Shown in pieces: positions 3,396-60,172 of a DNA stretch of 64,000 nt. The notes under the pieces were generated by a model, which was given only the letters and a program-made list of their open reading frames with translations, was not told the origin of the DNA and did no database searches. Made by a program: the position numbers and the translations under genes. Source of the DNA: Flavobacteriales bacterium (GTDB lineage: Bacteria; Bacteroidota; Bacteroidia; Flavobacteriales_F; PHOS-HE28); the NCBI GenBank assembly GCA_046329115.1, contig JAXLVG010000010.1:84482-148481 (forward strand), given 5' to 3'. How positions within the stretch are numbered: the first letter of the stretch is position 1; each line of letters starts with the position of its first letter.

Positions 3396-3896
3396 TCAGG
3401 TCGCGAGCTTGGCGTAGACATCCAGGCTGATCCACCGGCCGTCCTTGCGCTCGCATTCGCGTAACGTGCCCTCGTGCCGGAACCCGTGCTTCAGCAGCAC
3501 CCGGGCGCTGGCGGTGTTCTCCGGCTCCACCTCGGCCGTCACGCGATGCAGCCCCAGGGTGTGGAAGGCATGGTCCAGCACGCGGCCGAGCGCCTCGTTG
3601 ACGATGCCCTTGCCCCAATGCTCCGGCAGCAGCCAGTAGCCCAGTTCGCAACGCTTGTGCACCGGGTGGATGTTGTTGATGCCGATGGCGCCCAGGAACT
3701 CCCCGTCCGCCGCAGACCGGATCGCCCACCACTTGCCCGTGCCATCGCGCTCTATGGTGGCGTACCAGTCCATCTGCTCCTGCGTGGCCTCCAGCGTCAT
3801 GAAACGCACGGCGTAGTAGCGGATCACCTCCGGGTGCGACAGGCCGCGGTGGATGTGCGTGATGTCCGCGGGGGTGATGGGGAGGAGGTCGATCAT
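3396..3896 (-). CDS. GNAT family N-acetyltransferase (RimJ/RimL-like)
   Basis: 167 aa with a GNAT fold (GYWLLPEHWGKGIVNEAL). The track ORF begins with GTG at 3899 followed directly by ATG at 3896. Its 5' end is duplicated downstream (see repeat at 4674..4729). Confidence 0.8.
   Translation of the reverse strand: MIDLLPITPADITHIHRGLSHPEVIRYYAVRFMTLEATQEQMDWYATIERDGTGKWWAIRSAADGEFLGAIGINNIHPVHKRCELGYWLLPEHWGKGIVNEALGRVLDHAFHTLGLHRVTAEVEPENTASARVLLKHGFRHEGTLRECERKDGRWISLDVYAKLAT
3823..3878. repeat. direct repeat copy A (inside the 5' end of the GNAT gene)
   Basis: atcacctccgggtgcgacaggccgcggtggatgtgcgtgatgtccgcgggggtgat matches 4674..4729 with 3 mismatches in 56 bp. Confidence 0.85.
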
Positions 3897-3902
3897 CACT
3901 GA

Positions 3903-4343
3903 TCATCGAAGAAGCTGAACGGGCACATCTCCGAACTGCTTGAACGCCTTGTCGTTGGTCACCAACACGTAGCCACCCGTTCGAGCGAAAGCGGCCAGAT
4001 AGGCATCCATCCAAAGCTTGGGCGACGCGGTGCTGGTCGCAGCGAGCTCCATCCAGACGGAATGAAGACCTACGGGCTCATCTGCGAACACGATGCGCGG
4101 ATCGTCCAGCATCCCTTGCATGGCCTTGATGGCCCCCTTGTTGGTGAGCGGGCTCAAACCGAGCGGGCTGGTAAGGGCAGCCGTGGTCAGCAGTCGCAGG
4201 GTGCTCTGCTGGGTGTATCGGCAGAAGTGAACGGAGCCGGTCCGCGCACCTTCGAACCAGTGCATGGCCTGCGGATGCAGCGGATGTGCCTCCAGGCTCA
4301 ATGCGAGCCAGACGTTGACATCGGGAAGGGTGGGCTTGCTCAT
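3903..4343 (-). CDS. vapC: type II toxin-antitoxin system VapC family toxin (PIN domain ribonuclease)
   Basis: 146 aa PIN domain: N-terminal acidic residue (LPDVNVWLAL) and C-terminal TNDKAF motif. It overlaps the upstream antitoxin gene by 4 bp (ATGA). Confidence 0.75.
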   Translation of the reverse strand: MSKPTLPDVNVWLALSLEAHPLHPQAMHWFEGARTGSVHFCRYTQQSTLRLLTTAALTSPLGLSPLTNKGAIKAMQGMLDDPRIVFADEPVGLHSVWMELAATSTASPKLWMDAYLAAFARTGGYVLVTNDKAFKQFGDVPVQLLR

Positions 4344-4588
4344 CGCATTCCGCCCCAGAGCAGTTCGTCCACCCGGTCCGGGGAAAAGTCCTCCGCATTT
4401 TTCGACTTGCCGCCCTTGATCACCGGAAAGGGGCTCCCCCGGGGCTTGCGCTTCCTGGGGCGCTCCTCCTCGGCCAGCAGGCGGCGACAGGCCTCCGCGA
4501 TCAGGTCCTTCAGCTTGGCCCCGTCCTGCGCGGCCTTCATCTTCAACCGGGTCACCAGGTCGGGCGGGAGCTCAAAGGTCATTTTCAT
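4340..4588 (-). CDS. vapB: type II antitoxin, VapB-like (small DNA-binding protein preceding VapC)
   Basis: ORF 4340..4657. Probable start MKMTFELPPDLVTRLKMKAAQDGAKLKDLIAEA at 4588 (82 aa). Placed immediately upstream of the PIN toxin with a 4-bp overlap, the classic vapBC operon layout. Confidence 0.6.
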   Translation of the reverse strand: MKMTFELPPDLVTRLKMKAAQDGAKLKDLIAEACRRLLAEEERPRKRKPRGSPFPVIKGGKSKNAEDFSPDRVDELLWGGMR

Positions 4589-4673
4589 GACCCGAAGGTA
4601 AGGCCTTTGAGGACGGCCAGCAAGCTGGGAAGCTGGTAAACCAGCTTCGCGGGACACCGTTCAGGCCAGGCTC

Positions 4674-4729
4674 ATCACCTCCCGGTGCGACAGGCCGAGG
4701 TGGATGTGCGTGATGTCCGCGGGGGTTAT
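4674..4729. repeat. direct repeat copy B (orphan duplicate of the GNAT 5' coding end)
   Basis: atcacctcccggtgcgacaggccgaggtggatgtgcgtgatgtccgcgggggttat. On the minus strand it translates to ...TPADITHIHLGLSHREVMS, mirroring GNAT residues 8-27. The two copies bracket the vapBC cassette. Confidence 0.85.
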
Positions 4730-4755: not shown

Positions 4756-5109
4756 TCACCGCCTCGCAAGTTCGCTCCGCAGGAAGGCCACTTCGCCCTC
4801 CAGGTGCTTGATGCGCTCCTCGTATTGCGCCATCAGCTTCTCCGGGATCTGGTTGTAGATCGTGTTCGCTTTACCCGACTGCGTGCAGTTGTGGAAGACC
4901 AGGTTGTCGTCGAAGGAGACGAGGTCCATGGGATCCATCTCGAAGACCTGCGAGATCTGGTTGATCCGTTCCCAGTCCAGTTTGGTCTCGTCCCGCTCGA
5001 GCTTGCTGTAGCCCCGCTGGCTCAGGCCGAGTGCATGGGCCATGTACTCCTGCGAGAAGCCCTTCAACTCGCGCACCATGCGGATCTTCTGGCCAAGCTT
5101 CTTCTCCAT
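4756..5109 (-). CDS. XRE family helix-turn-helix transcriptional regulator
   Basis: ORF 4756..5319. Likely start MEKKLGQKIRMVRELKGFSQEYMAHALGLSQRGYSKLERDE (HTH_XRE) at 5109; an alternative ATG lies at 5136. The C-terminal half is coiled-coil. Confidence 0.7.
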   Translation of the reverse strand: MEKKLGQKIRMVRELKGFSQEYMAHALGLSQRGYSKLERDETKLDWERINQISQVFEMDPMDLVSFDDNLVFHNCTQSGKANTIYNQIPEKLMAQYEERIKHLEGEVAFLRSELARR

Positions 5110-5213: not shown

Positions 5214-6455
5214 ATGAAACAGATTCTATCCGCACTTCTTGTAGTCGCAAGCACCTCCTGCGCGATCGGCCAGGTGCCGAGCTATGTGCCCACCAACGGA
5301 CTTGTTGGTTGGTGGCCATTCAATGGGAATGCAAATGACGAAAGCGGGAACGCCAATCACGGCACGCCTTATGGCCCAATACTCACTACAGATCGCAATA
5401 ACGTAGCGGACAACGCCTATGCGTTCAACCGCAGCGCGGTCCAAACCATCGACGTGTCGCAATCACCCACGCTGAATGGGTGTCCGGCTCTGACCATCTC
5501 CTTATGGACAATCCTGAACAGCTACGCAGCAAACGGCCAGGCCGGGTACAATCACTTCGTGAACAAGAGCCCCGGGGGATCAGACTACCAATACGCCCTA
5601 GCCAATAATACCACCGGCCTATACTTCTACTACGGCAGTGGTGGCGCCTACTTCCAGACAAGCACGCTGCCCTCGCTGAACGCATGGCACCATCTGGCGC
5701 TCACCTATACCTACGATGGTACACCGACCAATTCCTGGTGCCGGTTCTATGTGGACGGTGCTTGCACGGACAGTTTCCCCACCACCACCGTCCTTCAGCC
5801 TACGACGCATCCGTTGCGCTTCGGGTCCTTTCCAGGGGGCACGTACAACACGGTGGATGGTAAGGTGGATGACCTAGGGATCTGGAACCGTATGTTGACT
5901 GCGAACGAAGTAAGTGGGCTCTTCTCAGAGACTCCAGTGTCGCCCTGCATTAGTAGCACCCCCGTCAGCTTCATCGGGTTGAACACCTCGTACACCATTA
6001 ATGACGGCCCGTCCACCTTGGTCGGAACGCCTTCCGGCGGTGTGTTCATCGGCCTGGGAGTGAGCGGCAATAGCTTCGACCCTGCGGTGGCCGGTATCGG
6101 CATCCACAGCATCACGTACACCTACCTCGATGGCACCAATTGTGTGAACACCGCAGGCTTCTGCACCGAGGTGGCCCAGAACGTGGGAATGGGTGGCGCA
6201 GCTATGATCGCAGGCAGGGTGCATGTGTTCCCCAACCCGAACCGTGGCGTGTTCACGGTGGAGTTGGAACTTGATGGGTTGGTGTCCATGCGGGTGACCG
6301 ATGCAGTTGGGCGTCTCATGCACAGCGAGGTCTTCCATGCTAGTGGTGGGCGCACTGCGCGGACACTTGACCTTTCGATGTTAGCCAAGGGCCATTACAC
6401 CCTTCAAGTTCATAATGCCGGAGGTGTGATTGAACAGGGGATTGTCTTGGAGTAG
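5214..6455 (+). CDS. secreted LamG/concanavalin-A-like lectin domain protein with T9SS C-terminal sorting domain
   Basis: ORF 5181..6455. Signal peptide MKQILSALLVVASTSCAIGQ from the ATG at 5214. C-terminal ~80 aa (VFPNPNRGVFTVELELDG...LAKGHYTLQVHNAGG) matches the Por/T9SS type A CTD. The gene has visibly lower GC than its surroundings. Confidence 0.75.
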   Translation: MKQILSALLVVASTSCAIGQVPSYVPTNGLVGWWPFNGNANDESGNANHGTPYGPILTTDRNNVADNAYAFNRSAVQTIDVSQSPTLNGCPALTISLWTILNSYAANGQAGYNHFVNKSPGGSDYQYALANNTTGLYFYYGSGGAYFQTSTLPSLNAWHHLALTYTYDGTPTNSWCRFYVDGACTDSFPTTTVLQPTTHPLRFGSFPGGTYNTVDGKVDDLGIWNRMLTANEVSGLFSETPVSPCISSTPVSFIGLNTSYTINDGPSTLVGTPSGGVFIGLGVSGNSFDPAVAGIGIHSITYTYLDGTNCVNTAGFCTEVAQNVGMGGAAMIAGRVHVFPNPNRGVFTVELELDGLVSMRVTDAVGRLMHSEVFHASGGRTARTLDLSMLAKGHYTLQVHNAGGVIEQGIVLE

Positions 6456-17276: not shown

Positions 17277-18638
17277 ATGAGCGCGCTGATCCTCACCTCC
17301 GTGCTGGGCGTGCTGGTCCTGTACCTCGGGCTCTTCGGTCGCAAGGAGTGGCTGGCCCCCGTGGGCGTGCTGGGCCTGCTGGGCGCCATCGCCCTGCTCG
17401 CCTTCGACGGTCGTTGGACGGACCTGGCCCAATTCCACCACATGATCCGCTTCGATGGGCCGGCCGTGCTCTTCGGCATGGGGCTGCTGGCCCTCACGGC
17501 GCTCATCTTCCTCTTCGGCGTGGACTACTACGCGCGCGAGACCGAGAACGTGGCTGAGCAGTACGCGTTGATGATCTTCAGCGTGACGGGCGCACTGGTG
17601 CTGGTGAGCTACACCAACCTGCTGATGCTCTTCCTCGGCATCGAGGTGCTGAGCATCCCGCTCTACATCCTGGCCGGCGCGAAGAAGCGCAGCTACCGCA
17701 GCGGGGAGGCCAGCTTCAAGTACTTCCTGCTGGGCTCCTTCGCCAGCGCCTTCATCCTCATGGGCATCGCGCTCATGTACGGCGTGTGCGGCTCCTTTGA
17801 GCTGGAGAAGATCGCCGCCGTGGTGGCACAGGGCACCGAGCCCGCGCTGCTGCTGATGGGCGGCTTCTTCGTGCTGATCGGCCTCACATTCAAGGTGGCC
17901 GCCGTGCCCTTCCATTTCTGGAGCCCCGATGTGTACGAGGGTGCGCCCACCCTGGTCACGACCTTCATGGCCACGGTGGTGAAGATGGCGGCCTTCGCCG
18001 CGCTGTTGCGGCTGGTGCTGCTGGGCGGTCTGCCCGCCGACCTCGGCTACGCTCTGCTGGGCATCACGGCCATCACCCTGCTGGTGGGCAACCTGATCGC
18101 GGTGGTGCAGGAGCGTTTCAAGCGCCTGATGGCCTACAGCAGCGTCGCGCACAGCGGCTTCCTGCTGATGGCCGTGCTGAGCGGTGGCGCGGAGGTGCCG
18201 CAGGCGCTGTTCTACTACACCTTCACCTACGGCCTGGCCACGCTCGGGCTCTTCATGCTCATGACCATCGCCAAGCGCGCGGCCAATGGGGATGAGCACC
18301 TCAGCATCTTCCGTGGCCTCTTCCGCAGCAACGCATGGCTGGGCGTGGTGGCGCTGCTGCTGCTGCTGTCGCTGGCGGGCATCCCGCTCACGGCAGGTTT
18401 CATGGCCAAGTTCAAGGTGTTCCAGCTCGCGCTGACCGCCGGCCACGTGAAGCTCACGGTGCTGGCCGTGGCCATGGCGCTGGTAGGCATCTACTACTAC
18501 GCCGTGGTGATCCGCGAGGCCTTCTCGCCCGCGGAGCAGGCCCCTGCATTGGTGGTGTCGCCCCTCAACCTGCTGGTGATCTCCCTGTGCGGGATCGCGG
18601 TGGTGGTGCTGGGTGTGATGCCGGGGTTGGTGATGTAG
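17277..18638 (+). CDS. nuoN: NADH-quinone oxidoreductase subunit N
   Basis: 453 aa antiporter-like subunit. Its last ~130 bp is duplicated, diverged, at 19294..19425. Confidence 0.9.
   Translation: MSALILTSVLGVLVLYLGLFGRKEWLAPVGVLGLLGAIALLAFDGRWTDLAQFHHMIRFDGPAVLFGMGLLALTALIFLFGVDYYARETENVAEQYALMIFSVTGALVLVSYTNLLMLFLGIEVLSIPLYILAGAKKRSYRSGEASFKYFLLGSFASAFILMGIALMYGVCGSFELEKIAAVVAQGTEPALLLMGGFFVLIGLTFKVAAVPFHFWSPDVYEGAPTLVTTFMATVVKMAAFAALLRLVLLGGLPADLGYALLGITAITLLVGNLIAVVQERFKRLMAYSSVAHSGFLLMAVLSGGAEVPQALFYYTFTYGLATLGLFMLMTIAKRAANGDEHLSIFRGLFRSNAWLGVVALLLLLSLAGIPLTAGFMAKFKVFQLALTAGHVKLTVLAVAMALVGIYYYAVVIREAFSPAEQAPALVVSPLNLLVISLCGIAVVVLGVMPGLVM
18507..18638. repeat. direct repeat copy A = native 3' end of nuoN
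   Basis: 132 bp ending at the nuoN stop. A diverged copy (~76% nt identity, with an identical 27-bp core tcgcccctcaacctgctggtgatctcc) lies at 19294..19425. Confidence 0.8.
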
Positions 18639-19293
18639 GGCTCCACCTCCGCGCTTCCGGCGGTAAGCGATGGCCTTGCGTTCGTGTTATGGCCGGTGAT
18701 CTTGAGCTGAGGCCAGGGTATCCCGTCGCCGCCCGGCTATCTTTGAATGAACACACGGCCCCATGGGAAAGCTCGCCGAAAAGAAGGTCGCTCTGGCGGC
18801 CCAGATCCTTCGATCCGATGATGAAGGCCTGCTTCGTTCCGTGGACGAGCTGCTGAATGGCCGATCATTCCGGCTCTCTTCAGAGGAACTGAAGGACTTG
18901 GAACGCATGCGCAAGCGCTACTTGGCTGGCGACGGCAAGTCGAGCCCGTGGCCTGAGGTGGAGAAACGTCTGCGCAAGAAGCTGCGCGGATGAGCTGGCG
19001 GCTGGAGGTCCATGAAGTGGCCGAAAGCGACATCGCCTCGGCCGCTAGTTGGTACGCTCAGCAACAACCTGGCTTGGAGTCCCGGTTCATCCAAGAGGTG
19101 AAGGCCTGTTGCGCGTTCATCCTGAAGAATCCCCACGGACCAGCAAGGCAGGTGGGCCCTACCGGCAGTTCCGCCTGGAGACCTTCCCCTTCCATGTGAT
19201 CTACCTCATCATGGATGATCTCGTGCTGGTCATGCGGGTCTATCACATGAGCCGTGACCAGCGCCGCAAACTTCCGCGAGGGAGAAGGCCGCG
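18639..19293. mobile_element. integrase-less toxin-antitoxin cassette (addiction-module antitoxin plus frameshifted ParE) bounded by nuoN 3'-end duplications
   Basis: A 655-bp segment between the two nuoN-end copies, an attL/attR-like arrangement. Confidence 0.35.
18763..18993 (+). CDS. putative addiction-module antitoxin component (RelE/ParE-partner family)
   Basis: 76 aa. LSSEELKDLERMRKRYLAGDGKSSPWPEVEKRL resembles the 'putative addiction module component' antitoxins. Its stop overlaps the start of a ParE-like gene (ATGA). Confidence 0.6.
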   Translation: MGKLAEKKVALAAQILRSDDEGLLRSVDELLNGRSFRLSSEELKDLERMRKRYLAGDGKSSPWPEVEKRLRKKLRG

Positions 19294-19297
19294 ATGA
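18990..19297 (+). pseudogene. RelE/ParE family toxin gene disrupted by a frameshift
   Basis: The N-terminal 56 aa (MSWRLEVHEVAESDIASAASWYAQQQPGLESRFIQEVKACCAFILKNPHGPARQVG) are in frame 0, which ends at 19199. The conserved ParE C-terminus (YRQFRLETFPFHVIYLIMDDLVLVMRVYHMSRD) continues in the -1 frame of track ORF 19049..19297. The shift maps to ~19155-19162 (ggccctaccgg). Confidence 0.55.
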
Positions 19298-19425
19298 TCA
19301 TCGAAGCCTTCACGCCCGCCGAACAGGCACCCGCGCTCGTGGAGTCGCCCCTCAACCTGCTGGTGATCTCCTTGTGAGGGACGCGGGGGAGTGGTGCCGG
19401 GGTGATGCTGGGATCGGTGATGTAG
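19294..19425. repeat. direct repeat copy B = degenerate pseudo-copy of the nuoN 3' end
   Basis: Translates to MIIEAFTPAEQAPALVESPLNLLVISL*, versus nuoN ...IREAFSPAEQAPALVVSPLNLLVISLCGIAVVVLGVMPGLVM*. Interrupted by a stop; both copies end ...ggtgatgtag. Confidence 0.8.
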
Positions 19426-19453
19426 CCTTGCCTCGACGGTCATCCCGCAGGGC

Positions 19454-20686
19454 TCAATGCCCCAATTCCCCCTCCCACTTGCTCACCACGCTCGTGGCGA
19501 TGGCGTTACCCACCACGTTGGTGGCGCTGCGGCCCATGTCGCAGAAGTGATCGATCGGCAGGATGAGCGCGAGGCCCTCCACCGGCACACCGAACATGCC
19601 GAGCGTAGCGGCCACCACAACGAGTGATGCGCGCGGCACTCCGGCGATGCCCTTGCTGGTGAGCATGAGCGTGAGCAGCATGGTCACCTGCGTGCCGAAG
19701 TCGAGGGTGATACCGTAGACCTGGGCGATGAAGAGGCTGGCGAAGGTCATGTACATCATGCTGCCGTCCAGGTTGAAGCTGTAGCCCAGGGGCAGCACGA
19801 AGCTCACCACCTTGTCCTTGCAGCCGAAGCGCTCCAGCTCTTCCATGAGCTTGGGCATCACGGCCTCGCTGCTGGTGGTGCTGAAGGCGATGGTGATGGG
19901 CTGCAGGATGCGGCGCATCAGCTCCTTCATGCGCGCGCCGAGGAAGAGGAAGCCCACACCAAGCAGGATGGCCCACAGGATGGCGAGGCCGATGTAGAAC
20001 TGGCCGATGTAGACGGCGTAGGTGCTCAGCACGCCCAGGCCGTGGATGGCGATCACCGCCGCGATGGCGCCGAAGACGCCGAGCGGAGCGAAGTTCATCA
20101 CGTAGCCCACCATCTTCAGGATCACGTGGGCCACGCTCTCCAGCAGGTACACCACGGGCTTCGCGTAGTCGCCGATGCTGGCGCAGGCCACACCGAAGAA
20201 GATGCTGAACACCACGATCTGGAGCACTTCGTTCCGCGCCATGGCCTCCACCATGCTGCTGGGGAACACGTGGGCGATGAAGTCCTTCAAGGTGAACGCC
20301 TTCGTCTTGTCGAGCACATCGGCCACATCACCGCTCGCCTCCAGGTGCAGGCCCACACCGGGCTGCAGCAGGTTCACCAGGAACATGCCCAGGGCTAGCG
20401 ATACCAGGGATGCGGTGATGAACCACAGCAGCGCACGGCCCCCCACACGTCCCACGGTCCTCATGTCGCCCAGCTTGGCGATGCCCACCACCAGCGTGCT
20501 GAACACCAGCGGCGCGATGATCATCTTGACCAGGCGCAGGAAGATGTCCGTGAGCAGTTTGAGGTTGTCGGCCACGCCTTTGCGCGCCACCTCCTCCATG
20601 TTCACGTGCATCACATAGCCCAGCGCGATGCCCAAGGCCATGGCCACTAGGATGTAGAGCGTGAGCCGGTTGGTCTTCGAGAGCAT
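19454..20686 (-). CDS. dicarboxylate/amino acid:cation symporter (DAACS family, GltP/DctA-like)
   Basis: 410 aa, ~8 TM helices plus re-entrant hairpins. Conserved SSEAVMP and NLDG motifs of the sodium:dicarboxylate symporter family. Confidence 0.85.
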   Translation of the reverse strand: MLSKTNRLTLYILVAMALGIALGYVMHVNMEEVARKGVADNLKLLTDIFLRLVKMIIAPLVFSTLVVGIAKLGDMRTVGRVGGRALLWFITASLVSLALGMFLVNLLQPGVGLHLEASGDVADVLDKTKAFTLKDFIAHVFPSSMVEAMARNEVLQIVVFSIFFGVACASIGDYAKPVVYLLESVAHVILKMVGYVMNFAPLGVFGAIAAVIAIHGLGVLSTYAVYIGQFYIGLAILWAILLGVGFLFLGARMKELMRRILQPITIAFSTTSSEAVMPKLMEELERFGCKDKVVSFVLPLGYSFNLDGSMMYMTFASLFIAQVYGITLDFGTQVTMLLTLMLTSKGIAGVPRASLVVVAATLGMFGVPVEGLALILPIDHFCDMGRSATNVVGNAIATSVVSKWEGELGH

Positions 20687-24592: not shown

Positions 24593-25078
24593 TCAAGGAA
24601 CGGCCGTTGGGGCCATCCCCGCCACGGCGTTCTGTTCGGCCTGGGACCAGCCCTCCTGCACCGCACGGCGCCGCAGTCCGTGCCGTTCCAGCAGGTCCAC
24701 CATGCGCACCAGGTCCTGATAGCGGGTGCGGTCAAGCGGCTTCACCACCACCTGCAGATCGGTGGTATCCGGTATGGCCTTCAAGGCCGCGTTCACCTGA
24801 TCGCGGCCCAGCCGCTTGGGCGGGGTGGTCACTGGATCGAAAGGTCCTGCGTAGCCGAAGATGGAATCGCGCCCGGCCAGCAGGAAGGTGAGCGAACGGT
24901 GCTCCATGCCCGGACCGGCGCCGAGCGGCACCAGCAGGTCGAGCCCCTCCAGGCGCCGCAAGCTGGTGGTGAGCACGAAGAAGGTGAGCAGCAGGAAGGC
25001 CAGGTCCACCATCGGCGTCATGTCGATGCGGATCGCGGGCGCACGGCCCGGAGCGGGATGAACAGGAAGGTCGGCCAT
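24593..25078 (-). CDS. exbD: biopolymer transporter ExbD/TolR (copy paired with TonB copy 1)
   Basis: ORF 24593..25297. Start MADLPVHPAPGRAPAIRIDMTPMVDLAFLLLTFFVL at 25078. The TM segment is almost identical to that of the ExbD at 27320..27952. Confidence 0.8.
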   Translation of the reverse strand: MADLPVHPAPGRAPAIRIDMTPMVDLAFLLLTFFVLTTSLRRLEGLDLLVPLGAGPGMEHRSLTFLLAGRDSIFGYAGPFDPVTTPPKRLGRDQVNAALKAIPDTTDLQVVVKPLDRTRYQDLVRMVDLLERHGLRRRAVQEGWSQAEQNAVAGMAPTAVP

Positions 25079-27319: not shown

Positions 27320-27952
27320 TCAGAACTTGGCTTTCTCGATGTCGATCAGGGCCTGCTCGTCGGGCTTGATGGTATCCTGCACGGCGTATTTGCCGATGCC
27401 CGTGATGTCCATCTCGTCCACGATGTCGATCATGTTCCGGTAGCGCGCGTCCTTCTCGGGCTTGATGATCACGTACAGGGCCTCCTTCTTCTTCTGCGCC
27501 TCGTTCTTCAGGCTGTCGAACACCTCCTCGGTGATCTTCTTCTCGTTGAACTGGCGGGCCAGATCATTGATCCGGTCGAAGGTGCTCTTGTTCATCTCCA
27601 CGAGCATCTTGCGCACGTCCTTGAAGTTGGTCACGCTCATCTGGGTCTCCCCGGGCTTGAAGGCATCCTTGTAGTACACGATGCGATCGGCCTTGGTGAG
27701 GAACAGGGTGAGCGCGTTGTTCACCTTGTCGAGCTCCTTGGGCTGGTCCTCCTCCGGCGGCACCGGGAAGGTGAGCTGCAGGGTGCTCGGCTTGTACATC
27801 GTGGTGGTAAGGATGAAGAACGTGAGCAGCAGGAAGGCCAGGTCCACCATCGGCGTCATGTCGATGCGCGTGCTGCCCTTCTTGGCGCGTTTCTTCTGGT
27901 GTCGTCCCCCGCCTGGGGCTCCTCCACCGTCTCCTCCTGGTGCTTCTGCCAT
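27320..27952 (-). CDS. exbD: biopolymer transporter ExbD/TolR
   Basis: 210 aa, RIDMTPMVDLAFLLLTFFIL TM segment with an extended C-terminal periplasmic domain. Confidence 0.8.
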   Translation of the reverse strand: MAEAPGGDGGGAPGGGRHQKKRAKKGSTRIDMTPMVDLAFLLLTFFILTTTMYKPSTLQLTFPVPPEEDQPKELDKVNNALTLFLTKADRIVYYKDAFKPGETQMSVTNFKDVRKMLVEMNKSTFDRINDLARQFNEKKITEEVFDSLKNEAQKKKEALYVIIKPEKDARYRNMIDIVDEMDITGIGKYAVQDTIKPDEQALIDIEKAKF

Positions 27953-28066: not shown

Positions 28067-28702
28067 TCACATCCGGCTCTCCTCCAGGTCCGTGATCATC
28101 TTGAAGCGGTTGATCTTTATCGTCGGCCCCTGGAAGATCTTGATCACTTCGTTGATCGTGGAATACTTCGCGTTGCCATCGCCCTTCAGCGCCACCAACG
28201 GGTTCTTCCCCCCGCCTTCGCTGCTGAAGATCATCTGGGTCACGCGGATCCAGTCCTGCAACTGGTTGTTCGCATCGTCGTAGGGGATGCCTTTGGACTG
28301 CTGGTCCACCTCCTTGCGCTCGGTGCCGTTGTCCAGGTCCAGGTAGCCCGGCAGCATGGCCATGGGCACCCCGATGTTGTTCAGGTTGGTGAAGCGGGTC
28401 ACCTGGTCTTCCGTAAGCGGCGGCAGGTTGTAGCGCTTGGCCATCTCCACCACCACCGCGGTGCGCACCTTCTTGTCCGTGAAGTCCCAGAACACGCGTC
28501 CGGCACTGTCCACGGTGATGGTCATCAGGTTCTCCGTGGGGATGGGGCTCTGGCTCATGCTGCTCGGCGTGTCCACGGCAACGGCCTCCTCCGGCCGGAA
28601 CTGCGCGGTGAGCATGAAGAAGGTCACCAACAGGAAGGCCAGGTCCACCATCGGGGTCATGTCCAGCGAGGGACTGCTCCGGGGCATCTTGATCTTCGGC
28701 AT
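28067..28702 (-). CDS. exbD: biopolymer transporter ExbD/TolR (second ExbD type of the cluster)
   Basis: 211 aa, LDMTPMVDLAFLLVTFFML. Confidence 0.8.
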   Translation of the reverse strand: MPKIKMPRSSPSLDMTPMVDLAFLLVTFFMLTAQFRPEEAVAVDTPSSMSQSPIPTENLMTITVDSAGRVFWDFTDKKVRTAVVVEMAKRYNLPPLTEDQVTRFTNLNNIGVPMAMLPGYLDLDNGTERKEVDQQSKGIPYDDANNQLQDWIRVTQMIFSSEGGGKNPLVALKGDGNAKYSTINEVIKIFQGPTIKINRFKMITDLEESRM

Positions 28703-42098: not shown

Positions 42099-43430
42099 AT
42101 GCACAACTTCGTCGCCGAAATGACCGAGCAACTTACCCGGAGCCAGGAGCTCATCGCCCGCCGCAAGGCCGCCATCCCGAACGGCGTGGGCATGTTCAAC
42201 CACGCCACGGCCGCGCAGGCCAGCGGTGCCACCATCATCGATGCGGACGGCCGCGAACTGATCGACTTCGCCGGGGGCATCGGCGTGGTGAACGCGGGGC
42301 ACTGCCCACCGCCGGTGGTGAAGGCCATCCAGGAGCAGGCCGCGAAGTTCCTGCATGTGAGCTTCAACGTGGCCAGCTACGAGCCGTACATCGCGCTCTG
42401 CGAGAAGCTGAACGCCCTGCTGCCCCACGGCGGCCCCACCAAGACCATGCTGGTGAACACCGGCGCCGAGGCGGTGGAGAACGCCATCAAGATCGCACGC
42501 CAGGCGACCAAGCGTCAGGGGGTGCTCTGCTTCACCGATGCCTTCCACGGCCGCACCATGATGGCCATGACGCTCACCAGCAAGGTGGGCTACAAACCCG
42601 ACTGCGGTCCGTTCGCACCCGAGGTGTACCGCACGCAATACCCCAACTTCTTCCGCTACGGCGCGGGGCGCAGCGAGGCCGAGTTCGCGAAGGCGGAGCT
42701 GCATCGCCTGGAGGAGCTCTCCCACAACCTCGTCGACCCGAAGAACCTCGCCTGCGTGATCATCGAGCTGGTGCAGGGCGAGGGCGGCTTCAACGTGGCG
42801 CCCAAGGCCTATGTGGAGGGCCTCCGGAAGTGGTGCGACCAGCATGGCATCCTGCTCATCTTCGACGAGGTGCAGGCGGGCTTCGGCCGCACCGGTGCCT
42901 GGAGCGCTTACGAGCACTTCGGCGTGATCCCCGACCTGAGCACCTGGGCCAAGAGCCTGGGCAGCGGCATGCCTATCGGCTGCGTGATGGGCAAGGCGGA
43001 GCTCATGGACAAGGCGGCGCCCAGCAGCATCGGCGGCACCTACATCGGCAACCCGGTGAGCTGCGCTGCGGCCCTGGCCACGCTGCAGTACATGGAGGAG
43101 ATCGACATCAACGCCAAGGGGCGCCATGTGGGCGAGGTGATCCGCAAGCGTTTCGAGAAGATGAAGGCGAAGCACGCCTGCATCGGCGATGTGCGCGGGC
43201 TCGGTGCCATGATGGCCATGGAGTTCAACGTGAACCGCGACCCTTTGCGGCCCGATGCGGACACCTGCACCAAGCTGATGAACGCCTGCGCCAAGCGTGA
43301 CCTGGTGGTGATCACCGCCGGCACCGACAAGAACGTGATCCGCGTGCTCAGCCCCCTCGTGATCAGCGACGAGCTCCTGAACAAGGGGCTGGACATCATG
43401 GAGGAGGAGCTGGAGAAGATCTGCGGGTGA
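42099..43430 (+). CDS. class III PLP-dependent aminotransferase (4-aminobutyrate/putrescine aminotransferase-like)
   Basis: 443 aa. DEVQAGFGRTG and PLP-lysine region (TWAKSLGSGMPIG). Alternative start at 42120. Confidence 0.85.
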   Translation: MHNFVAEMTEQLTRSQELIARRKAAIPNGVGMFNHATAAQASGATIIDADGRELIDFAGGIGVVNAGHCPPPVVKAIQEQAAKFLHVSFNVASYEPYIALCEKLNALLPHGGPTKTMLVNTGAEAVENAIKIARQATKRQGVLCFTDAFHGRTMMAMTLTSKVGYKPDCGPFAPEVYRTQYPNFFRYGAGRSEAEFAKAELHRLEELSHNLVDPKNLACVIIELVQGEGGFNVAPKAYVEGLRKWCDQHGILLIFDEVQAGFGRTGAWSAYEHFGVIPDLSTWAKSLGSGMPIGCVMGKAELMDKAAPSSIGGTYIGNPVSCAAALATLQYMEEIDINAKGRHVGEVIRKRFEKMKAKHACIGDVRGLGAMMAMEFNVNRDPLRPDADTCTKLMNACAKRDLVVITAGTDKNVIRVLSPLVISDELLNKGLDIMEEELEKICG

Positions 43431-43433
43431 GGA

Positions 43434-43546
43434 AACCACAGAGGCCACACAGAACACAGAGAGATCCACATCCCACCCGCACACGCCCAAAGCCTCACAC
43501 GCGTGCATCGCGCATTGCCTCTGTGACCTCTGTGGCCTCTGTGGTT
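43434..43546. repeat. palindromic intergenic repeat element, CACAGAG-heptamer family, copy 1
   Basis: Left arm aaccacagaggccacacagaacacagagag, right arm cctctgtgacctctgtggcctctgtggtt, ~55-bp spacer. Lies between the aminotransferase and C-N hydrolase genes. Confidence 0.8.
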
Positions 43547-43557
43547 GATCGATCGAC

Positions 43558-55845: not shown

Positions 55846-55925
55846 GCGAGTGGCGAGTAGTGAGTGGCGAGTAGTGAGTGGTAGCTGCAGCGGCAGACTC
55901 ACCACTCACTACTCGCCACTCGCCA
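55846..55925. repeat. long GC-rich hairpin built from 7-bp units (gagtggc/gagtagt) between the ATP-grasp and C45 genes
   Basis: gcgagtggcgagtagtgagtggcgagtagtgagtgg [tagctgcagcggcagac] tcaccactcactactcgccactcgccactcc. The arms pair over ~27-34 bp, with no T-run after the stem. Confidence 0.7.
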
Positions 55926-55938
55926 CTCCTCGAACGAA

Positions 55939-56940: not shown

Positions 56941-56968
56941 TGCTCGGGACGGAGAGTTATCATTGTTT

Positions 56969-57055
56969 GAACCACAGAGGCCACAGAGAACACAGAGGAC
57001 AGCGTTCAACACCACTCATGGCATTTCTCTATGCCCTCTGTGCTCTCTGTGGTTC
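56969..57055. repeat. palindromic intergenic repeat element, CACAGAG-heptamer family, copy 2
   Basis: gaaccacagaggccacagagaacacagagg ... cctctgtgctctctgtggttc. Directly upstream of, and overlapping, the GxxExxY track ORF. Confidence 0.8.
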
Positions 57056-57492: not shown

Positions 57493-57533
57493 TCACTTAG
57501 GTCTTAAAGCGGTTCACTGACTAAGACCCCGGC

Positions 57534-57571
57534 ATTCCTCTGTGCCCTCTGTGCTCTCTGTGGTTGATCCA
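57534..57571. repeat. CACAGAG-heptamer family, copy 3 (single arm)
   Basis: cattcctctgtgccctctgtgctctctgtggttgatcc, directly downstream of the GxxExxY gene. Gives the same spurious MPSVLSVV peptide in the ORF track as copy 2. Confidence 0.75.
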
Positions 57572-59048: not shown

Positions 59049-59160
59049 GGTTCACCACAGAGGCACGGAGGGCACAGAGAAATACATCCGCTTGGGCGGT
59101 GTCCGATCTCATAGTCCGATCCGCATTCCTCTGTGTGCTCTGTGGCCTCTGTGGTTCACC
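59043..59160. repeat. palindromic intergenic repeat element, CACAGAG-heptamer family, copy 4
   Basis: ggttcaccacagaggcacggagggcacagag ... cattcctctgtgtgctctgtggcctctgtggttcaccc. Lies between the ALDH gene and the lpxD 3' end; the right arm reaches the lpxD stop codon. Confidence 0.8.
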
Positions 59161-60172
59161 CTTCGCGCTTCTCCAGCTTATCGATCCGCTCCACGATCTT
59201 GTCCAGGTTTCGGAAGTGTATGTAGCTCTTGCGGTACTTCTGCACCTCGAAGGCCGGTGAGCCCATGTAGGCCTCGCCCGGCTTGGTGTCCTTGCTGATG
59301 CCGCTCTGGGCCGCGATGATGGTGCCGTCCGCGATCTTCAGGTGGCCGATGATGCCGACCTGTCCGCTGAACATGCAGTTCTTCCCGATCTTGGTGGAAC
59401 CCGCCACCACGCCGCCAGCCGCGTAGTACGTGTTCTCGCCCACCTCCACGTTGTGCGCGATGTGGATGAGGTTGTCGAACTTGACCCCCTTCCGCAGGAT
59501 GGTGCTGCCCAGCGTGGCGCGGTCGATGGCGCAGTTCGCGCCGATCTCCACATCGTCCTCGATCACCACGTTGCCGATCTGCGGGATCTTGGCACCACCA
59601 TCGGGACCGGTCGCGAAGCGGAAGCCGTCGCTGCCGATCACCGTGCCGCTGTGGATGATGCAATTGGCGCCCACCACGCAGTCCGAATAGATGGTGACGT
59701 TGGCGAACACCGTGGTGTTGTCGCCGATCGTGACGTTGTCCCCGATGTAGCTCTGGGGGTAGATCTTCACGTTGTTCCCCAGCTTCACGTTCTCCCCGAT
59801 GAAGGCCAGCGGACCGATGTAGCAGTTGTCACCGTGGGTGGCGCCGGCGCTGAGCACGGCCTGCGGGGAAATGCCCTTCTTGTCGAGCTTGATCGTATTG
59901 TACATCGCCAGCACCTTGGCGAATGCGCCCTGGGCATCGGCCACGCGCACCAGCGTGGAAGTGACCGGTCCGGTGAGCTCGAAGGCGTTGCCGATGATGA
60001 CCACGCTCGCCGTGGTTGTGTAGAGGTACTGGGCATAGGCCGGGTTGGCCAGGAACGAAAGCGAACCAGGGCCACCCTCCTCGATCTTGGAAAGACGGGA
60101 AACGGTGGCGTTCGGGTCCCCCTCCACGGTGCCTTGGAGGAGCTGGGCGATCTGGGCGGCGGTGAACTGCAT
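59156..60172 (-). CDS. lpxD: UDP-3-O-(3-hydroxyacyl)glucosamine N-acyltransferase
   Basis: 338 aa. Left-handed beta-helix hexapeptide repeats. N-terminus MQFTAAQIAQLLQGTVEGDPNATVSRLSKIEEGGPGSLSFLANPAY. Confidence 0.9.
   Translation of the reverse strand: MQFTAAQIAQLLQGTVEGDPNATVSRLSKIEEGGPGSLSFLANPAYAQYLYTTTASVVIIGNAFELTGPVTSTLVRVADAQGAFAKVLAMYNTIKLDKKGISPQAVLSAGATHGDNCYIGPLAFIGENVKLGNNVKIYPQSYIGDNVTIGDNTTVFANVTIYSDCVVGANCIIHSGTVIGSDGFRFATGPDGGAKIPQIGNVVIEDDVEIGANCAIDRATLGSTILRKGVKFDNLIHIAHNVEVGENTYYAAGGVVAGSTKIGKNCMFSGQVGIIGHLKIADGTIIAAQSGISKDTKPGEAYMGSPAFEVQKYRKSYIHFRNLDKIVERIDKLEKREG

Follow-up and report, generated by a model that had tools for sequence, protein, structure and literature searches.

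In a 64,000-nt stretch of DNA from a Flavobacteriales bacterium (GCA_046329115.1, contig JAXLVG010000010.1, positions 84,482-148,481 of the forward strand; the window, in whose coordinates positions are given below), the 3′ end of nuoN, the gene of NADH-quinone oxidoreductase subunit N, occurs twice, with a small toxin-antitoxin (TA) cassette between the copies. On balance, and with moderate confidence, we read the distal copy as a recombination scar in a hypervariable slot between nuoN and the gene of a sodium:dicarboxylate symporter (SDF). The event behind it would have been illegitimate at one end and anchored by homology at the other, and its product would have been kept through TA addiction. 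Related genomes carry scars of varied composition around one TA family in the same slot. The host belongs to an uncultured, high-GC lineage of Flavobacteriales whose nearest species representatives are 70-75% identical, and its nuoN protein is identical to P0125, an NCBI protein from a Flavobacteriales metagenome-assembled genome. Loci used for comparison are given by L-numbers.

Two copies of the nuoN 3′ end

The nuoN gene (17277..18638, + strand) is intact and encodes 453 aa (PF00361, E=6e-66). Its last 138 bp, the proximal copy (18501..18638, + strand), are repeated as the distal copy at 19288..19425 on the same strand, with 115 of 140 aligned columns identical (82%) and three small indels; comparison of the window with itself returns the pair with a blastn E=1.4e-30. 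The repeat unit measures 787 bp and contains the TA genes as its sole content. A preliminary description, made from the sequence alone, had given the duplication as 132 bp at 76% identity, so that its existence stands with both values corrected. The premature stop noted there is present as well (TGA at 19375..19377), as is the terminal sequence shared with nuoN, GGTGATGTAG. Translated in the nuoN frame, the distal copy reads AAMIIEAFTPAEQAPALVESPLNLLVISL, a stop, GTRGSGAGVMLGSVM and a second stop, with the frame broken by the indels. It is a dead, displaced gene end and no paralogue, as indicated by the single nuoN end in relatives and in conspecific alleles. Long tblastn spans in L009, L081, L087 and L104 were considered as extra nuoN copies and turned out to be matches to the nuoM paralogue.

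The longest identical run between the copies comprises 28 nt (18557..18584 = 19344..19371); the identical core described previously is present, one nucleotide longer than the 27 given. With 25 differences over 138 positions, an identical run of at least 27 nt is expected by chance with P ~0.06, and the 28-nt core is also conserved in nuoN of L130 and L082. With this chance level and its position in a conserved coding stretch of nuoN, the core gives little indication of a crossover site. Both the distal copy and the frameshift in the toxin gene described below are identical in L133 and in 10 more independent assemblies from different samples (L172-L181), so that neither is a sequencing artefact.

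The toxin-antitoxin cassette

An upstream spacer (18639..18762, + strand), whose first 47 nt are ~75% identical to the allele L171, separates nuoN from an intact candidate antitoxin gene of 76 aa (18763..18993, + strand). The stop codon of the latter overlaps the start of a ParE toxin pseudogene (18990..19297, + strand) in an ATGA (18990..18993). ParE is split into two frames by a 1-nt deletion between 19143 and 19144, located by alignment with the intact orthologue in L161, and the two halves match PF05016 at positions 2-44 and 39-88. With one base restored the match extends over positions 2-88/89 (E=3.3e-9, 37.6 bits with a cutoff of 23), similar to the 36 bits scored by the L161 orthologue. 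For the antitoxin candidate no Pfam or NCBIfam match was obtained in the window protein search; its homologue in L163 weakly matches PF09720 (Unstab_antitox, E=0.012, under the cutoff). Homologues of the antitoxin form four clusters in a large protein collection, and the three that were looked up all lie in this neighbourhood; the fourth is P0001 (99% identical). The pairing of antitoxin and toxin is kept in L161, L163 and L168.

These properties confirm the frameshifted ParE that had been proposed between the copies and agree with the proposed antitoxin, for which a weak family match exists in one homologue. Judged from its sequence, the cassette is a ParDE-like type II TA pair with putative toxicity and neutralisation. 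It shares with such pairs (PF05016) the upstream antitoxin overlapping the toxin start in ATGA and a toxin that, once corrected, is a full-length match; it differs in the frameshift of the toxin and in an antitoxin without significant Pfam match. The element TATCTTTG at 18738..18745 fits the motif TAnnTTTG, which we take to be the Bacteroidota -7 promoter motif, and the same motif is located 5′ of the antitoxin in L163 (TACATTTG) and L168 (TACCTTTG). Scans for sigma-70 promoters and intrinsic terminators found nothing, the promoter scan being one that does not cover Bacteroidota promoters.

In the following, the TA family of the window is referred to as TA1. Of the four lineages with this family, two have an inactivated toxin. 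In L168 (567..868) the ParE homologue is also split in two frames, near 780, and the antitoxin is intact; the contig of L168 begins with the Illumina adapter remnant TGCTCTTCCGATCT. A sudden change of identity along the alignment of the window with L161, which would mark a recent cassette transfer, was looked for and not found: the TA region is 71-75% identical, like the flanks.

A hypervariable slot between nuoN and SDF

In this clade nuoN and SDF are convergent neighbours. The SDF gene (19454..20686, - strand; PF00375, E=8e-116), which keeps its synteny throughout the clade, forms the right wall of the slot and is separated from the stop of the nuoN remnant by a 28-nt spacer (19426..19453) found only in alleles of the window type and in L171. 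Across more than 20 related genomes the distance from the nuoN stop to the SDF stop ranges from 50 to 2391 bp, with unrelated cargo. At least four alleles exist within the species (nuoN DNA ~95% or more identical). The window, L133 and L172-L181 hold TA1 with the 138-bp nuoN remnant; in L171 a DUF433/DUF5615 pair is combined with a nuoN remnant of 55 bp and the 28-nt spacer known from the window; L169 has 868 bp at 47% GC with a 128-aa open reading frame (ORF), and L182 and L183 have a 194-aa ORF. In P0005, a 94%-identical relative, a 112-aa gene occupies the slot instead. The DUF433/DUF5615 cassettes of L171 and L094 were compared as possible relatives, and no similarity is detectable between them at the DNA level.

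The boundaries between shared and allele-specific DNA are sharp. Homology of L169 to the window ends at most 3 nt from the nuoN stop and resumes at most 2 nt from the SDF stop, and in L182/L183 it breaks exactly at both stop codons. Near-empty sites of 50-130 bp (L091; L092 with 50 bp) are found in more distant genomes, and the remnant, 28 nt from the SDF stop, has a geometry resembling that of L092. As to the empty site anticipated in the preliminary description, a single nuoN end is present in L169, in L182 and in numerous relatives, but in slots occupied by other cargo.

Transfer hotspots without mobile elements are known to turn over through recombination in the core genes on either side (2017, PMC5635113). 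The slot shares with these hotspots its core-gene boundaries, many unrelated alleles and the lack of an integrase or transposase. The breaking of allele homology at the stop codons follows the same pattern, and the flanking nuoN is a mosaic. The hotspot model differs in assuming clean double crossovers, whereas here some alleles retain gene-end scars, clustered on TA cargo. The presence of such scars in a subset of alleles shows one-ended or illegitimate events.

The functional end is native and the scar is old

Over 18501..18638 the proximal copy matches L169, a conspecific allele without TA genes, with 0 mismatches; its identity is 98% with L171 and 95% with L182. In view of the complete identity with L169, the functional end is the species' own and not a diverged import. 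Upstream, nuoN is a mosaic relative to L169, with 90% identity over 17677..18076 (41 mismatches) and 2 mismatches over the following 562 bp (18077..18638), which suggests recombination breakpoints inside this slot-flanking gene. The nearest relative of the distal copy is the nuoN end of the window itself, followed by L082, L081 and L130. Substitution divergence between distal and proximal copy amounts to K ~0.17, plus indels. Since conspecific nuoN alleles differ from one another by less than this at four-fold sites (0.10-0.135), the scar is old.

The divergence lies in the decaying distal copy rather than in the functional end. In the preliminary description it had been taken as the mark of an element that brings its own version of a gene end; this interpretation is not supported, given the 100% identity of the functional end to a TA-less conspecific. 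The search for a donor lineage suggested there gave no foreign, element-borne end either, as the closest sequence to the distal copy is the proximal one, which itself groups with its own species.

Scars around TA cargo in related genomes

The TA1 pair is accompanied by different gene ends in different genomes. In L161 it lies between nuoN and SDF without any remnant, with the ParE stop overlapping the SDF stop, and in L168 a 143-bp duplicate of the 3′ end of SDF flanks it. In L162-L167 the pair is enclosed by two SDF-end remnants, the second of which is joined to a 77-bp nuoN-end remnant. This composite spans 4895..5685 in L163 (the same in L162 and L164-L167), with SDF remnants at 4895..4975 and 5540..5611 and the nuoN remnant at 5601..5685. 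The fusion point of SDF and nuoN remnants is a microhomology, GGTGGCGC, and the gene found intact downstream encodes an amino-acid permease instead of SDF. A conserved tight junction of the TA1 cassette with the SDF stop is seen in three lineages.

Other TA families in the slot carry scars as well. In L001 (7371..8729) a 335-bp duplicate of the SDF 3′ end (91.6% identical) begins 9 bp after the nuoN stop and is followed by a 58-aa ORF with a PIN toxin and by the intact SDF, an order that mirrors the window. A PIN pair with a 57-bp SDF-end scar is found in L148, and the TA-like pair of L171 has the nuoN-end scar of 55 bp mentioned above. L065 (906..2391) combines nuoN, a DUF4160/DUF2442-like pair, a 72-bp nuoN-end duplicate (96% identical), a GIY-YIG-like T5orf172/MUG113 gene and SDF; the same family of DUF4160/DUF2442-like pair is present without a duplicate in L012. 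TA-bearing alleles without scar are L012, L094/L024 and L161. The nuoN remnants begin 138, 99, 77, 72 or 55 bp from the nuoN stop, depending on the genome. Altogether, 7 of 10 slot alleles with TA cargo have a scar, as against 0 of 13 with other cargo (Fisher p=4.9e-4).

Two further arrangements of related appearance were observed. In L049 (3365..3819), from a distant low-GC member of the Bacteroidota, a 99-bp duplicate of the nuoN 3′ end (87%) lies ~260 bp downstream; the small ORF between the two ends gave no family match. Within the window, a second cassette of the same anatomy occupies 3823..4729 on the - strand and consists of VapC (PIN, 3903..4343) and an RHH antitoxin (4340..4657). A 56-bp direct repeat encloses it (3823..3878 and 4674..4729, 94.6% identical) and corresponds to an internal stretch (about codons 8-27) in the 5′ part of the neighbouring GNAT acetyltransferase gene (3396..3899). 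No allele without this VapBC cassette was found, the cassette being present in all 24 contigs read with an identical GNAT gene (8 places shown).

A palindrome at the junction

A zero-loop quasi-palindrome (19272..19323) spans the site where the ParE tail meets the nuoN remnant. Its centre lies between 19297 and 19298, with 20 of 26 positions complementary; its arms read TTCCGCGAGGGAGAAGGCCGCGATGA and, across the centre, TCATCGAAGCCTTCACGCCCGCCGAA. A zero-loop score of 20/26 is reached at one position only in the whole window, which is this junction, with ~0.018 such palindromes expected by chance in the junction neighbourhood. The left arm consists of the last 8 codons and the stop of ParE (19272..19297), the right arm of nuoN remnant. 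ParE similarity to L168 fades past ...CGCAAACT (~19272), from which it appears that the end of ParE, its last eight codons and the stop, is encoded by the opening codons of the nuoN remnant, copied in inverted orientation. We would read the palindrome as a decayed fold-back join that marks the illegitimate processing of a DNA end, rather than as a structure kept by selection. Its interpretation as a selected hairpin or known RNA was rejected, with a stability that is ordinary in comparison to shuffled sequences (z=-0.72) and no Rfam match. The ends of the integron attC consensus (RYYYAAC/GTTRRRY) are absent from it, and no integrase is found among the neighbouring genes.

Proposed origin of the scar and alternatives

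We propose that related genomes exchange the cargo of the slot through homologous recombination in the nuoN and SDF flanks; homology with other alleles runs through both genes up to the slot. In the event that left the scar, one end would have recombined homologously and the other would have been joined illegitimately via a fold-back DNA end beside the cassette. As a result, the nuoN end of one allele together with the 28-nt spacer would have been added instead of replacing its counterpart, and a dedicated recombinase or att site would have had no part in the event. That the two copies derive from two alleles and not from a local copy is indicated by the repeat ending exactly at the stop codon with different spacers behind it, and further by the spacer of the distal copy being common to L171. 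Scars may persist near TA genes because addiction penalises clean replacement as well as deletion mediated by the repeat. Later, the ParE toxin would have died by frameshift, with the scar long drifting.

Two directions are conceivable. The cassette could have arrived anchored in nuoN, as an insertion with long target duplication; alternatively, a TA-less allele could have come in anchored in SDF, with its far end joined outside the resident cassette, which survived. We slightly favour the second direction, the first being nearly as likely. Clean double crossovers should dominate among arrivals, yet scars are frequent on TA alleles, and TA1, with its conserved tight SDF junction, looks like an old resident. 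Moreover, the structure of L163 follows from two events of the second kind between extant allele types, one with a MORN-like gene beside SDF (L007, L090) and the permease allele, and addiction would explain the survival only of recombinants that do not delete the cassette.

Several points weigh against this proposal. As to its direction, the present data lean only slightly to the incoming TA-less allele, and the mechanism would presume a putative uptake of DNA and putative end-joining enzymes in the host. In the classical experiments on homology-facilitated illegitimate recombination, duplications are reportedly a rarer outcome than deletions. The association between scars and TA cargo comprises 23 alleles, some of shared ancestry and all from metagenome assemblies. 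No empty allele carrying the 28-nt spacer was present among all fetched loci, so that the state before the event is a reconstruction. Finally, the palindrome is decayed (6 of 26 positions mismatched) and a single instance; the other scar junctions were checked and none is palindromic.

Arrival of the cassette by insertion with long target duplication, either as Campbell-type integration of a circle or as a nuoN-anchored insertion, is possible, although we think it rather unlikely. Here, a nuoN end with the TA genes would have entered an empty site of nuoN, 28 nt and SDF; the distal copy would be the original end of the recipient, and the functional end would have been supplied or re-formed by the incoming DNA, which corresponds to the model of the preliminary description minus the site-specific recombinase. 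The distance of 28 nt between remnant and SDF stop, in a geometry resembling near-empty sites such as L092 (50 bp), agrees with such an arrival, as do the same geometry in L001, with its SDF remnant 9 bp from the nuoN stop, and the precedent of restriction-modification systems. Even the link to TA cargo would be accounted for, since recombination would remove direct repeats that surround non-addictive cargo. On the other hand, clean double crossovers should far outnumber one-ended events, yet 7 of 10 TA alleles are scarred. In addition, the identity of the functional end with TA-less conspecific alleles would demand a conspecific donor. The tight SDF junction in three lineages gives TA1 the look of an old resident rather than of a frequent arrival, and TA1 has been seen solely in this slot (3 of 4 homologue clusters looked up). 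A fold-back junction is not predicted by Campbell integration.

A local rearrangement, in which tandem duplication or template switching within one chromosome put the nuoN end behind ParE, appears improbable. The window's own nuoN end is indeed the nearest relative of the distal copy, and template switching is compatible with a fold-back junction. A local copy would, however, have brought along the sequence downstream of the proximal copy, whereas the duplication ends exactly at the stop and is followed by a different 28-nt spacer that is common to L171; the mirror-image SDF scars in other genomes likewise ask for a common, inter-allelic cause.

Still less probable is a site-specific integration, in which the copies would be attL and attR of a tiny element, with the identical core as crossover and a tyrosine or serine recombinase encoded elsewhere. 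This attL/attR-like reading had been put forward in the preliminary description, and direct repeats around cargo at a gene 3′ end, a restored ORF and a 28-nt identical run are what it would lead one to expect. The observation made there that the cargo is a TA pair alone without recombinase proved correct, and extends to the neighbours: none is encoded in the insert, in the nuo operon with nuoM and nuoN, or among the SDF, TPR, phosphate-binding-like and TonB/ExbD genes. The core is not significant (P ~0.06) and equals a conserved nuoN coding stretch. Since TA1 occurs without repeat in L161, with an SDF end in L168 and with SDF and nuoN remnants in L163, there is no fixed att site. The varying start points of the repeats (55-138 bp), the palindromic junction and a functional end that is not specific to an element likewise speak against the reading, which we do not retain.

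That the remnant or the palindrome is a functional element under selection, be it a terminator, an RNA or a small ORF, is hardly credible: the remnant persists in more than 10 assemblies and also exists in L171, but it contains a stop codon, indels and ~17% substitutions, the remnants of the window and L171 differ widely, and the hairpin, no more stable than shuffled sequences and without Rfam match, has no terminator-like site.

Relation to known systems

The closest counterpart is known from restriction-modification systems. Insertion with long target duplication of restriction-modification complexes is attributed to Nobusato et al. 2000, as cited in PMC2853133. Restriction-modification modules that lack mobility genes are surrounded by long target duplications with repeats of 30 to ~420 bp; in some cases a repeat overlaps a gene's 3′ end, and a single copy is present in related genomes (PMC2853133). 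Furuta, Abe and Kobayashi 2010 (PMC2853133) defined them by an insert of <20 kb without mobility genes and a direct repeat of >30 bp, and the present locus, with a 787-bp unit free of mobility genes and a 138-bp repeat of 82% identity, falls within these bounds. Their definition also asks for a related genome with one copy of the repeat at an empty site; conspecific alleles have one nuoN end but other cargo in the slot, near-empty sites occur in more distant genomes, and no allele was found in which nuoN, the 28-nt spacer and SDF directly abut. Common to both is a small addiction module without mobility genes inside long direct target repeats. In our case the cargo is a type II TA pair, not a restriction-modification system, although both are addiction modules. 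The copies are 18% apart and one is pseudogenised, the same cassette family occurs with scars of either flanking gene or none, and a fold-back palindrome forms one junction; what the scar records may be a replacement that failed instead of an insertion. On this comparison the feature is to be regarded as a TA-cargo variant of the signature known from restriction-modification systems. A literature search, within its limits, found no paper describing such scars or duplications for TA systems.

Elements with an integrase specific for gene 3′ ends present a similar picture. Replacement ends are provided, in E. coli, by e14 and phage 21 at icd and, in Streptococcus thermophilus, by ICESt1 and cis-mobilisable elements at fda. 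With these the window shares the duplicated gene end, the restored ORF and the displaced pseudo-end at the far side of the insert. It differs in lacking an integrase, a fixed core or breakpoint and an element-specific end, and in that the same cargo is flanked elsewhere by the ends of other genes.

Homology-facilitated illegitimate recombination in naturally transformable bacteria was reportedly described by de Vries and Wackernagel in 2002 and by Prudhomme et al. in 2002. It combines one homologous anchor with an illegitimate join at microhomology, to which the GGTGGCGC junction in L163 and the fold-back junction of the window would correspond. The process is known from laboratory transformation, whereas here it would have to be deduced from old natural scars.

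Other repeats in the window

Apart from the cassettes, an intergenic near-perfect palindrome of 74 nt (87%), built of GAGTGGCGAGTAGT-type repeats, was observed at 55855..55928. A dispersed family of short repeats with CTCTGTG heptamers (consensus ...CTCTGTGCCCTCTGTGGCCTCTGTGGTT) is found at 43408..43550, 56968..57054, 57531..57569 and 59122..59178; as it occurs in direct and inverted orientation, it may be similar to repetitive extragenic palindromes (REP) or miniature inverted-repeat transposable elements (MITE). Repeats of 57-67 bp at 24964..25030, 27802..27868 and 28607..28663 were rejected as mobile DNA, since they represent a conserved IDMTPMVDLAFLLLTFF-coding motif in three ExbD-like paralogues.

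Implications

Taken alone, the locus is ordinary; the interesting part is the recurrence of scars specific to TA cargo together with a possible link to resistance against curing. How chromosomal TA cassettes without mobility genes move and persist is poorly understood. The nuoN-SDF slot offers a natural series in this respect, with one TA family and others placed between the same core genes and bearing scars of either wall, of both or of none. For annotation it carries the warning that a diverged gene-end duplication around small cargo alone is no proof of an integrase-type element.

Tentatively, gene-end scars beside TA genes could be the footprints of failed chromosome curing, where clean replacement kills via the toxin and only those rare recombinants survive that add the end of the incoming allele beside the cassette. 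We consider this doubtful at present. If true, TA cassettes would be anchors at which dated pieces of unsuccessful competing alleles accumulate, and a readable genomic record of recombination-mediated curing against addiction modules would exist. Should the pattern hold genome-wide, it would extend the signature of long target duplication from restriction-modification to TA systems, and a gene-end remnant beside a TA pair would become a sequence marker of addiction-shaped recombination. The role of TA systems in resisting deletion and curing would then be testable by comparative genomics and transformation.

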